DNA of 64,000 nt from Dictyostelium discoideum. Taxonomy: Eukaryota. The translations under genes and the position numbers were made by a program. How positions within the stretch are numbered: position 1 is the stretch's first letter; each line of letters starts with the position of its first letter. Shown in pieces: positions 42,029 through 46,154 of the stretch. The stretch covers positions 1,248,001 to 1,312,000 of the forward strand of contig CM000154.2 of assembly GCA_000004695.1 (NCBI GenBank), in the 5' to 3' direction. Under the pieces are notes generated by a model. It ran no database searches, was not told the DNA's origin, and saw only the letters and a program-made list of their open reading frames with translations.

Positions 42029-44032
42029 TTATTTTTTTTCAAGTTCAATAGATTTACTATCGTTGTCACTATTATTACTATTTTTACTATTATTACTATT
42101 TTTACTATTATTACTATTTTTACTATTATTATTTTTTCCAAAACTGATATCAGTTCTACTATTGTTTCTAGAAATTCCAGATTCACTTTGGGAAAGTCTG
42201 CTTCTTACTTCATCAAATACAACCTCTGACCAAATATCTCTTGCAACTCTTGAGGTTCCATATATTGAAAAGAATAAAACACCAAAAACTCTAATAAAAA
42301 AATAAAAAATGAAAAAAGATGCATAGTTCGGTCCAGTTGTAAAACAAGTTTCTTCTGACCCACCACTTAATAAACAAAGTACATAATCTGCCACAGCAGC
42401 TTTATATGAATCAATTTTCCTTTCAACATCAAAAAAGAAAATAAATAAATACAAAAATGAGCCAGCAACAGAAAAAACTAAAGAAAAAGGTTTGATTTGT
42501 CTTAATATAAATTCACTCTCTCTAATGTTAACTTTTTTTGAAATCTTAAAAAAAAGTTTTTTTTTTTTAAAAATATTAGTTAAAAAATATAATGAAAAAT
42601 AATTTAATGTTAAATATTTACATTATAAATCTCATGAATAACGCCACCAATACAGAAAATACCAATTGAAAGACCAATACCACAAGGCAACCAAAAAAGT
42701 GTAATAACAAACCTGGAATTTTAATAATATAAAAAAAATAATAATAATAATTTAAATATTAATAACTATCAATATTAAAATTAAATATTTTAAAATTAAT
42801 TTAATAAATACAAACCATCTTTCTCTAACCCAACATTCAATATAACCTGTACCAGCAACCATCTTTTTTGCTGATAAAAGTATAACAGTTGTTATTATAG
42901 TAAAAATTGTATTTCCAATCATAAAATGTCTAAAATAAAATAGTTTTATTCTTTTTACACTACAAAATAATACTATACTCATTGTCATTGCCCAGCAACA
43001 ACAATAGGTTATACCAAAATGAAACATTGCTCCGGTAATTCCACATGCAGCATCATTTTGAACAGCACTTCTACCTGGCTCTGGACATAGAAACTCCTCA
43101 ATACCATAACCAAATTTAATAATATCAGTTAAATAAACCAATGCAATAGAAGTAGACATCAAGGTGATACATATATTATATTTTGATTTTCTTTTTCTAT
43201 TTAAAATTCCAAATGTTAAAATATTATAACAAGCGCAAATAAAACTAATTGATGATAAGGTTTTAGCCATATCATAAACTCTTTTCCATTGGGTTTTTGT
43301 ATAATTTGGCATTGGACAAGTTAGAACGCAGTTTGTTGGTGGGAGATAGGTATAACCTTTATTGGGTGAATATTTTGGGTCACTTGAATTTTTTAAAAGA
43401 AGTGGGTATGGACAAGCTTGAATTAATTCCATTTGGTTGGAAATATTATTATACCCGTCTGTTGGATCAATACATGGTACCTTATATAATCCTTTATTTT
43501 CAGTATACCCATATAGTGTTAAATTATATTCAGTTCCAATCTCTGGAAATAAAAAGGAAATTGAACAATCAATTTTCAAAGAAAGTCTTGGACAATTTGA
43601 GACCATTCTTTCACATACAGATTTACATAATCTTTGAGGCAATGAAACATTTTGTAGAGGTGTAATTTTGGGTATCGTTTCAACACAAGGAGAAAAATTT
43701 AAATCGCACAAACCGAATTGGGTAAATAATAAATCATCGCATTGGTCTTGTAAAAATGTTAAAGCTTCAAAAGATTTTAAAATTTCTATTTTTGAAAGTT
43801 CCTGGGAAGAAATATTTTTATTATCAACAAGTGTAACAGTTGAATAAATTTTTTTACCTCCATTAAATAATCTGTTATTACAAAGTGGTTGGCCAATTGA
43901 ATCCCCGACATAGTTCAAACATTTTGAACCTGGAAATACAATTCCAACTCCATATCCTTTGCTATATTCATTATTTTCCCCATTAATTATTATTATTTTT
44001 AAAATTAAATAAATTAAAAAAATTCTAATCAT
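42029..44032 (-). CDS. Frizzled/smoothened-like (Fsl) receptor with an N-terminal cysteine-rich domain and a 7TM region, paralog A, in 3 exons.
   Basis: Exon 1 is 44032..42816 with donor GTTTGT in phase 2. Exon 2 is 42712..42622 after acceptor AATTCCAG, and ends with donor GTAAAT. Exon 3 is 42544..42029. It has a signal peptide, a Fz-like CRD (FLQDQCDDLLFTQFGLCDLNFSPCVE...PQRLCKSVCERMVSNCP), TM helices, the conserved ECWVRERW-FVITLFWLPCG motif, and a Ser/Asn-rich tail. Confidence 0.75.
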
Positions 44033-44249
44033 TTCTTAAATGTTAAATATTTATATAAATGTTAAACTATTAATAATTAAATATAAAACAAAAAATAAGA
44101 TTGCTTAAAAAAAAAAAAAAAAAAAAAAAAAACAACAACGAAATACCCATTTAAAAAAAACAACCAATTACCAGAGCCACTTTTTTTTTTTTGAATTCTT
44201 TTTTTTTTTGATTGGTTCTTGAAATCTCAGGAAAAAATTAGATTCAAAC

Positions 44250-44285
<36 letters not shown>

Positions 44286-44297
44286 TTTTTTTTTATT

Positions 44298-46154
44298 CTA
44301 ATTAATTTTAATTGATTCTAATTCAACTGCTTTCTTTTCATTTAGATTTTTATCATTGTTATCATTTAAAATCATATTGTTATTATTTGTACTATTACTA
44401 TTAATTTTAGAATCACTATTTTTAGGACTGGATTTTGGTGTTGATTTTGGAGAAATTGAGGAACTAATACTTTTCCAGATTTTATTTTGAACCCAAATTT
44501 TTCTTGCAATATTAGATGTACCATAGAATAAAAAAAATATAATTCCAAACCATCTAATAACCAAATAAAATAAAAAATAAGGAACATAGCTTGGTCCGGT
44601 TGTGAAGCATTCTTCTTGGCTTCCATTTAATAAACATAAAACATAATCTTCAACAGCTGATCTATATCCTCCAAATTTTCTTTCAATATCAAAAAAGAAT
44701 ATAAAAAGATATAAAAATGATCCTGAAATAAATATAACAATTAAAAGAGGTTTTAATTCTCTTTGTAGTAAATCATTTCTATTACTAATAGATTTTTTGG
44801 ATGTCTTTTTTTTAAAAAGTATAAAAAGATTAATATTTGTTTAATAATTATATAATTTAAAAAATAAAAATAAAAAAAAACTTACTTTATAAACTTCATG
44901 GATTACAGCAATAATACAAAAAGAACCAATTAATAAGGCAATACCACAAGGAATCCAGAATAAAGATATAGCATACCATCTATCTCTAATCCAACACTCA
45001 ATAGATCCTAAACCAGCTTCGAATTTGGAAGTTGCAGCAGCGATAACAACAGTAGTAATTGTAAAGGTAGTATTACCAATTAAGAAATAATTGAACTTAA
45101 ACCATTTCTGACGTTTAACGCTACAATAAAGAACAAGACCCATTGTCATTGACCATAACACACAATAAGTAATGCCAAGGTGAAAAAATGCACCCGTTAG
45201 ACCACAAACTGGATCAAGTTGTTGTTTGGCACTTCTTCCAGGTTCTGGGCATAAAAGTTCTTCATAGCCAATACCATAGGTAATGATATCACACAGATTA
45301 ACCAATGCAATTGAACCAGAGAAAAAACATGTACATTTATGGGGATCTGATACTTTTTTATTTATTATTCCAAATGTTAAAACATTATATAAAGATAAAA
45401 TAAAACTAATTGTTGATAAAATTTTTGACATTGTTAAAAGTTGATCCCATTTTTGGTTTGAATAATTTGGAACAGGACATGGGAGTACACAATTTGATGG
45501 TGAAAGATATGAATATCCTTTATTAGCGGCATATTCTGGATCACTTGAATTCTTCAACAGTAACGGAGATGGACAAATTTCAATAAAACTAGAATTACTT
45601 GAAACTTGATTAAAAAAAATAGTAGGATCTGAACATGGAACTGCAAAGGTACCATTATCAATAGTATAACCATATGGTGATAGATCATAAAATGTACCAA
45701 TCTCTGGAAATAAAAATGAATTTGAACAATCCATTTGCTCTTCAAGTCTTGGACAATTTGAAACCATTCTATCACATACTGATTTGCAAAATCTTTGTGG
45801 CAAAGATATACTTTTCAATGGGGTTAAAGTTACTTCAATACATGGTGCCAAATAAATATCACAGATTCCAAATTGAGCAAATAATAAATCTTTACATTGA
45901 TCTTGTAAAAATGTTATTGCTTCAAATGATTTCTTTATGTTTGTTTGTGAATCTATTTGTGAATTTGTGGTTGTATAAATTCTATCACCATTATTTTGTA
46001 ATTTACTATTACATAATTGCTGGTCAATTGGATCTCCTATATAATTTAAACACTCTGCATCTGGTATAACTAATCCAATTCCAAATCCTTTTGGTATTTC
46101 AAATCCACTAATATAACTAATAATAAAAATAATAAAAATTATTAAAATTTTCAT
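44298..46154 (-). CDS. Frizzled/smoothened-like (Fsl) receptor, paralog B, in tandem with paralog A, in 2 exons.
   Basis: Exon 1 is 46154..44886 and ends VIHEVYK|GTAAGT. Exon 2 is 44804..44298. The domain order is the same as paralog A: CRD (FLQDQCKDLLFAQFGICDIYLAPCIE...PQRFCKSVCDRMVSNCP), ECWIRDRWYAISLFWIPCG, then YGTSNIARKIW. Confidence 0.75.

Follow-up and report, generated by a model that had tools for sequence, protein, structure and literature searches.

In a 64,000-nucleotide (nt) stretch of Dictyostelium discoideum AX4 chromosome 5 (contig CM000154.2, positions 1,248,001 to 1,312,000; hereafter the window), three genes encode frizzled/smoothened-like (Fsl) seven-transmembrane (7TM) receptors. 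We propose that they probably derive from an old tandem triplet that was later rearranged, that one member, termed A here, gained an intron, and that the genes encode functional receptors. They lie at 42029..44032 (A, minus strand), 44298..46154 (paralogue B, fslF, minus strand) and 60843..62648 (paralogue C, fslG, plus strand), outer limits that a preliminary description made from the sequence alone had given exactly. Fsl proteins are family 5 G-protein-coupled receptors according to Prabhu & Eichinger (2006), as that work is cited in PMC10445921 and PMC5821085; the latter lists the gene names fslA to fslH.

Three paralogous receptor genes

The three gene models were drawn from the listing of open reading frames (ORFs) and from splice sites read directly, in a region that is strongly AT-rich (GC 13-34%). 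A has three exons on the minus strand and encodes 607 amino acids (aa), comprising a signal peptide, a Cys-rich Fz-type ectodomain, a 7TM core and a Ser/Asn/Lys-rich tail. Exon 1 (42816..44032) encodes residues 1-405 and contributes 2 nt of the Trp-406 codon; it is followed by an intron found only in A (42713..42815; 103 nt, phase 2, GTTTGT...CCAG, 7% GC), by exon 2 (42622..42712; 91 nt), which encodes most of transmembrane helix (TM) 5 according to the secondary structure of an AlphaFold2 (AF2) model, by intron 2 (42545..42621; 77 nt, phase 0, GTAAAT...TAAG) and by exon 3 (42029..42544), which encodes TM6, TM7 and the tail and ends in a stop codon at 42031-42029. The fslF model (exons 46154-44886 and 44804-44298, minus strand; 591 aa) contains one phase-0 intron of 81 nt (44885-44805), as does the fslG model (exons 60843-62120 and 62202-62648, plus strand; 574 aa; intron 62121-62201, 81 nt). 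By exact-sequence look-up, these two models are residue-for-residue identical to AX4 FslF (Q54J77/XP_636810) and FslG (Q54J71/XP_636816). Both are known, annotated reference genes, and the third gene has been called in at least three related assemblies. A is probably fslE; counting against this name is that we infer it from fslE being the sole free letter between D and F.

All three proteins have the signal peptide, Cys-rich domain and 7TM core that the preliminary description had recognized. The Ser/Asn-rich tail that it assigned to each of them is present in A and FslF, whereas in FslG the tail is shorter and includes a Gln run and a Gly/Ser stretch. Thirteen cysteines occupy matching positions in the three ectodomains. 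Whole-protein identity is 56% between A and FslF, 57% between A and FslG and 58.5% between FslF and FslG, rising to 63-66% over the Cys-rich ectodomain. The cysteine-rich domains (CRDs) had been called nearly identical, which overstates the case: over the motif on which that claim relied, identity is 59-70%, and the first part of the motif as written matches FslF only, the second part all three proteins. Identity to AX4 FslB, FslC and FslD is 47-54% for the three proteins (47-51% for A), so that with 56-58% among themselves, against at most 54% to those relatives, the copies are each other's nearest relatives within AX4. A nests among the FslB, FslC, FslD, FslF and FslG clades and thus belongs with FslF and FslG in the Dictyostelium Fsl family (fslA-H, fslJ-Q). 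It has the architecture of the FslB/C/D/F/G subfamily and the phase-0 intron after EIYK, which is common to FslF, FslG, FslB and FslD; at the corresponding site, (V/I)(H/V)E(V/I)Y(K/N), all three genes in the window are interrupted, as had been noted. A alone carries a second intron.

The triplet is older than the species that carry it

We compared the AX4 genes with orthologous loci of D. citrinum (L001), D. firmibasis (L002), D. dimigraforme (L008) and D. discoideum strain ACTFIW (L009). Orthologues of all three genes occur in D. firmibasis and D. dimigraforme; D. citrinum has fslF and A and, of fslG, a fragment only. Synonymous divergence (dS) between these orthologues and AX4 is 0.4-0.9 (about 0.8-0.9 between AX4 and D. 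firmibasis), which places both the triplication and the A-specific intron before the species split. In a neighbour-joining (NJ) tree built with our own code and 300 bootstraps, orthologue clades of FslF, FslG, FslB, FslC and FslD were well supported and each reached D. firmibasis. Bootstrap support was 100% for the FslF, FslG, FslB and FslD clades and also for the A clade, which was represented there by AX4 and D. citrinum only; the A orthologues of D. firmibasis and D. dimigraforme were taken from the loci and stand outside the tree. FslF and FslG were sisters with 96% support, and A joined them with a bootstrap of only 47%.

Gene order tells the same history. D. firmibasis and D. dimigraforme share the order Rpb2, radical-SAM, fslF, A, fslG, SET, L16, Cpn10, with the three receptor genes on the same strand, and the D. 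citrinum order matches theirs with fslG reduced to a fragment. In the comparison of positions 42029-57635 of the window with L002 (1-14401), L001 and L008, AX4 reads roco kinase (+), A (-), fslF (-), radical-SAM (-), Rpb2 (-), LCM (-) and poly(A) polymerase (+), followed further on by fslG (+) and SET (-). The ACTFIW locus is collinear with AX4, and in both A is neighboured by the opposite-strand roco-type kinase and then a SET/MORN gene. AX4 fslG still adjoins its SET neighbour at 62716-63036. Because fslF, A and fslG stand in tandem in the relatives, the 15-kb separation in AX4 reflects a rearrangement and not a new copy; what had been taken for a separate third duplication is a displaced member of one F-A-G triplet. 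Most simply, the AX4 order would follow from one inversion of the block that extends from the poly(A)-polymerase gene as far as A.

These loci speak directly to the earlier proposal of a receptor family caught in the act of expanding in D. discoideum, with its third copy arising by dispersed duplication 15 kb away. The three genes do lie within 21 kb, and according to PMC10445921 the Fsl genes have multiplied chiefly in group 4, with D. discoideum showing the greatest amplification. However, the copies are just 56-58% identical, all three have orthologues in D. firmibasis and D. dimigraforme and two of them (fslF and A) in D. citrinum, at dS 0.4-0.9, and the three genes are adjacent in D. firmibasis and D. 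dimigraforme, with the same order and a fslG remnant in D. citrinum. The orthologous loci refute a recent expansion, to which we attach next to no credence. One detail weighs against our own reconstruction of an old triplet split by an inversion: the far breakpoint of the putative inversion lies outside the compared loci.

The D. citrinum remnant of fslG was seen in two strains. In ACTFIV, a C-terminal fslG fragment (L001 15607-15877) adjoins the SET gene, and a 640-aa gene call covers A and this fragment over 3.6 kb. In the ACTFIU annotation (P0026), the A orthologue is fused to the fslG fragment in a protein of 678 aa.

The A-specific intron is conserved and A appears to be a functional gene

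The extra phase-2 intron that the preliminary description placed in A is real, running from 42815 to 42713 on the minus strand, and fslF and fslG are continuous through the site; the copies do differ in intron content. The intron splits the Trp codon in ECWVRERW|FVITLFWLPCG: exon 1 ends ...AGA TG, the intron reads GTTTGT...CCAG and exon 2 resumes G TTT GTT ATT ACA, giving the predicted junction ...GGGTTAGAGAAAGATG^GTTTGTTATTACAC... (in shorter form, TGTTGGGTTAGAGAAAGATG^GTTTGTTATTACACTTTTTTGG). Its donor had been described as non-canonical. The intron is of the GT-AG type and thus canonical; only the hexamer GTTTGT departs from the consensus, the donors of most of the 16 other mapped introns of the family being of the GTAAGT/GTAAAT type. 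An alternative splice from a GTATTT donor after TGG TTT was rejected, as it has no in-frame AG acceptor that would restore the conserved FVITLFW.

An intron occupies the identical codon and phase in five genomes, namely AX4, ACTFIW, D. citrinum, D. dimigraforme and D. firmibasis. Its length ranges from 102 to 126 nt and its interior has diverged, and the donor is GTTTGT in AX4, D. citrinum and D. dimigraforme, GTTGGT in ACTFIW and GTATGT in D. firmibasis; GT, +5G, +6T and AG are conserved throughout. With this intron removed, the reading frame of A is intact in all five (598-611 aa). Ratios of non-synonymous to synonymous divergence (dN/dS, Nei-Gojobori) are 0.10-0.15 among A orthologues, 0.13-0.15 for fslF and 0.15-0.18 for fslG. 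For exons 2 and 3 of A, downstream of the extra intron, dN/dS is 0.03-0.16, and such low values indicate that these exons are translated in the spliced frame. Independent annotation pipelines support the model: in D. citrinum, protein P0026 contains ...ERWFVIPLFW..., so that the intron is spliced there in the same way, and a D. firmibasis gene call (12411-14401, 598 aa) equals the three-exon model in span and length. Intact frames, a conserved intron and purifying selection together argue that A is a working gene, predicted to be spliced in vivo, and not a pseudogene.

Were the GTTTGT donor not used, retention of the intron would bring a stop after 20 codons and yield a 426-aa ORF ending after TM4, so that A would be truncated or a pseudogene. 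The off-consensus hexamer fits this possibility, and so does the content of the protein collection that we looked up, which lacks the 607-aa product and contains only the 426-aa read-through ORF, derived from genomic Logan contigs. Yet in all five genomes conservation of the downstream exons follows the spliced frame, free of stops and frameshifts, GT, +5G, +6T and AG have been kept while the interior of the intron diverged freely, and the read-through stop codons fall at different places in each species. The collection contained none of spliced A, the ACTFIW three-exon model or the D. firmibasis A product, the last although that gene is called, and absence from it is therefore uninformative; for the same reason we set aside the notion that the AX4 annotation omits A or marks it as a pseudogene. 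We consider a truncated or dead A highly improbable, and favour a functional, spliced gene. Set against this preference, the Logan contigs that carry A are unspliced genomic DNA, and the argument for splicing is a comparative one.

Two features of the compared A loci deserve mention in their own right. Over gene A, strain ACTFIW (L009 12067-14178) is 94.4% identical to AX4 at the nucleotide level with a dS of about 0.15, a divergence rather high for one species, though the strain is labelled D. discoideum; its annotated A product has 558 aa and its three-exon model is intact at 601 aa. The shared intron 2 reaches 474 nt in D. citrinum A (L001 13886-14359), where it holds an (ATT)n microsatellite that accounts for the excess over the 71-87 nt of the remaining four genomes.

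The A-specific intron was probably gained once

By exon mapping, the A-specific intron is absent from fslF in AX4, D. citrinum, D. firmibasis and ACTFIW, from fslG in AX4, D. firmibasis and D. dimigraforme, from fslB in ACTFIW and D. firmibasis, and from fslC and fslD of D. firmibasis, the last of which served in place of AX4 for the intron state of fslD. It is likewise absent from an outgroup homologue in Tieghemostelium lacteum (P0017), whose two introns occupy other sites. Mapped onto the NJ tree, this distribution requires one gain or about four precise losses.

The boundaries of the intron carry a further signal. A 7-nt direct repeat, G|GTTTGT, spans both of them: the 5' copy (42810..42816, minus strand) consists of the final base of exon 1 and the donor hexamer, and the 3' copy (42707..42713, minus strand) of the final intron base and the first six bases of exon 2, which finish the Trp codon and encode Phe-Val. 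The repeat is perfect in AX4, D. citrinum and D. dimigraforme and carries one mismatch in D. firmibasis and in ACTFIW; at the 16 other mapped introns, the boundary repeat is 0-2 nt. Within the coding sequence of the Fsl genes examined, about 9e-4 of positions carry GTTTGT. At the same site, the intron-less paralogues read AGA TGG TAT GTA, which is a near-consensus donor, G|GTATGT, and the A intron of D. firmibasis begins GTATGTAA. The donor thus has the sequence of the coding bases immediately downstream, as though the coding target had been copied to form the start of the intron. Absence from relatives and the boundary repeat thus favour one old gain in the A lineage that duplicated its target, and we hold a single gain to be quite probable.

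The converse history, in which the ERW|F intron is ancestral, survives in A and was precisely lost towards FslF/FslG, FslD and FslB/FslC through recombination with reverse-transcribed mRNA, draws on the general record in this species. D. discoideum intron losses number 441 against 40 putative gains (PMC4683709), and because losses are roughly tenfold commoner than gains, parsimony alone is not decisive. The subfamily itself has lost an intron: the D. firmibasis FslC orthologue (L007 3001-4902) is an uninterrupted ORF from which the phase-0 intron after EIYK was precisely removed, and a whole ORF in Logan data suggests that AX4 FslC is likewise intronless. The placement of A in the tree is poorly resolved (47%), and were A the first to branch in the subfamily, loss would need about two events. 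No intron position is common to the T. lacteum homologue and the subfamily, a sign of high intron turnover. Against this, a history of loss calls for two to four independent precise events where one gain suffices, leaves the 7-nt identity between donor and exon 2 as a coincidence of about 1e-3, and does not explain why an ancient intron should keep an off-consensus GTTTGT that mimics the flanking codons. We therefore judge loss unlikely and a single gain the better account. Besides the frequency of loss and the weak placement of A, three further points weigh against a gain: the family-profile search returned 18 proteins, with none from D. purpureum or other outgroups; the boundary repeat was noticed post hoc, is only 7 nt long and is imperfect in D. 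firmibasis (GTATGT) and ACTFIW (GTTGGT); and the search of the window for a source of the intron gave low-complexity A/T matches only, at 64 bits against a shuffled mean of 50 and a maximum of 61. One origin of such spurious matches is the ORF at 63162-63827 (minus strand), which terminates in more than 30 isoleucine codons, that is, (ATT)n on the opposite strand. That no source or longer duplication is visible in the window may reflect the age of the gain and the decay of the intron interior.

As to how the intron arose, we tentatively suggest, with somewhat less than even confidence, duplication of the 7-nt donor-like coding target, through insertion or through double-strand-break repair, a legible mechanism that would be rare in Dictyostelium. 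The A intron resembles the short-repeat intron gains ascribed to double-strand-break repair or target duplication, as in Daphnia (discussed in PMC4683709), in that it is lineage-specific and absent from close relatives, has a 7-nt repeat and a donor that copies the coding bases after the intron. It differs from such repeat-flanked gains in being old (five genomes, dS up to 0.9), with a decayed interior in which neither a source nor a longer duplication is visible. In the same respects it resembles the tandem-duplication model of intron gain (PMC4974935); a gain that duplicated its target, through repair of a staggered break or through a small tandem duplication, would leave such a repeat. The two D. 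discoideum gains whose source has been traced (PMC4683709) lack boundary repeats, unlike the A intron.

A, FslF and FslG resemble class F receptors

Profile and fold searches indicate that A, FslF and FslG combine a class-F-like 7TM core, homologous to that of Frizzled and Smoothened, with an N-terminal Fz-type CRD. Across the family as a whole the signal is clear. The Pfam Frizzled profile was found in 13 of 18 family members (best E 1.5e-10) and the Fz profile in 10 of 18 (best E 6e-6). When the family profile was compared with PDB sequences, essentially all significant matches were 7TM chains of Smoothened or Frizzled (E 4e-8 to 1e-3). In line with this, the top 29 Foldseek matches of an AF2 model of A (mean predicted local distance difference test score (pLDDT) 72) were all SMO or FZD, and the top 14 matches of an ectodomain model (pLDDT 80.5) were all Fz-type CRDs (ROR2, FZD4/5/7, SMO and MuSK). 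Support for the CRD is weak but consistent. Counting against the assignment, A alone scores 17.3 bits with Pfam Fz, for which the cut-off is 32.1, and the Foldseek E-values of the ectodomain are weak (0.0099-0.3), at probabilities of up to 0.99. As single sequences, A and FslF reach 17-18 bits with Fz and FslF reaches 19 bits with Frizzled, where the cut-off is 22; an ectodomain sequence profile gave no CRD matches in the PDB.

The Dictyostelium paralogues depart from metazoan class F in several respects. They are only 11-17% identical in sequence to metazoan Smoothened and Frizzled-1/4/6/7, their single-sequence Pfam scores fall below the gathering thresholds, and they lack the KTxxxW motif directly after TM7, which in metazoan Frizzleds binds Dishevelled. 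A regular-expression search found KTxxxW in none of A, FslF, FslG and 17 other subfamily sequences (0/20), and the relaxed pattern [KR][TS]xxxW in none of A, FslF and FslG; the equivalent stretch reads YGTSxxARxxW. Dictyostelium is not known to have a Wnt, Hedgehog or Dishevelled protein, and these receptors must therefore act with other ligands and effectors than the metazoan ones. The motif has been published for FslJ and FslK only (PMC10445921), which agrees with its absence here.

In the literature searched we found no functional studies of A, fslF or fslG. The one mention is that of fslF, which a microarray study (PMC2643946) lists among the putatively deleted or divergent genes of some strain. 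Their closest characterized relative is FslB; FslB-null cells are insensitive to CfaD and to chemorepulsion by AprA and tend to be multinucleate (PMC5821085).

Neighbouring genes

An ORF of 1484 aa at 37408-41862 (plus strand) has leucine-rich repeat, Roc GTPase, COR, kinase and WD40 features, and the corresponding gene call in strain ACTFIW has 1727 aa; we take it to be roco4. Its 3' end converges on that of A across a gap of 166 bp. Two SET-domain ORFs, at 33412-34179 (plus strand) and 62716-63036 (minus strand), flank the region, one beyond each presumed end of the inversion; they differ from each other, and one has MORN-like repeats. On the other side of fslF, the neighbouring ORF at 46682-47902 is DDB_G0288255 by exact-sequence look-up.

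A history of the locus and its meaning

These observations can be accommodated in the following scheme. The F-A-G tandem triplet would have arisen in a common ancestor of D. discoideum, D. citrinum, D. dimigraforme and D. firmibasis. Once separated from the F/G lineage, yet still ahead of the species splits, A may have gained its second intron at the start of TM5, where the ancestral coding site, AGA TGG TAT/TTT GTx, would already have included a sequence resembling a donor, G|GT(A/T)TGT. This 7-nt target may then have been repeated by an insertion or by a local duplication, with the upstream copy becoming the 5' splice site and the event supplying an AG ahead of the downstream copy, which would have stayed coding. 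With the target duplicated and an AG before the coding copy, splicing restores the original frame, and the off-consensus GTTTGT donor would owe its sequence to the coding target from which it was copied. Later, in the D. discoideum lineage, a rearrangement, simplest as an inversion, would have separated fslG from its partners by about 15 kb and placed it on the opposite strand. Judging from homology, the products may act as surface receptors in which the CRD binds an extracellular ligand and the 7TM bundle signals inward, without the Wnt/Dishevelled route.

Much of this is ordinary evolution of a gene family and its introns and opens no long-standing question; the only element that is mildly novel is the trace, still readable, of an intron gained long ago. 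Gains with a traced source are very few in this lineage, and the A intron is a plausible and unusually legible case of gain by target duplication. For Fsl curators and for knockout work, the comparative case for A as a functional spliced gene, despite its odd donor, should be useful. An old tandem array split by a rearrangement, probably an inversion, also calls for caution over claims that Fsl genes were amplified very recently in D. discoideum.

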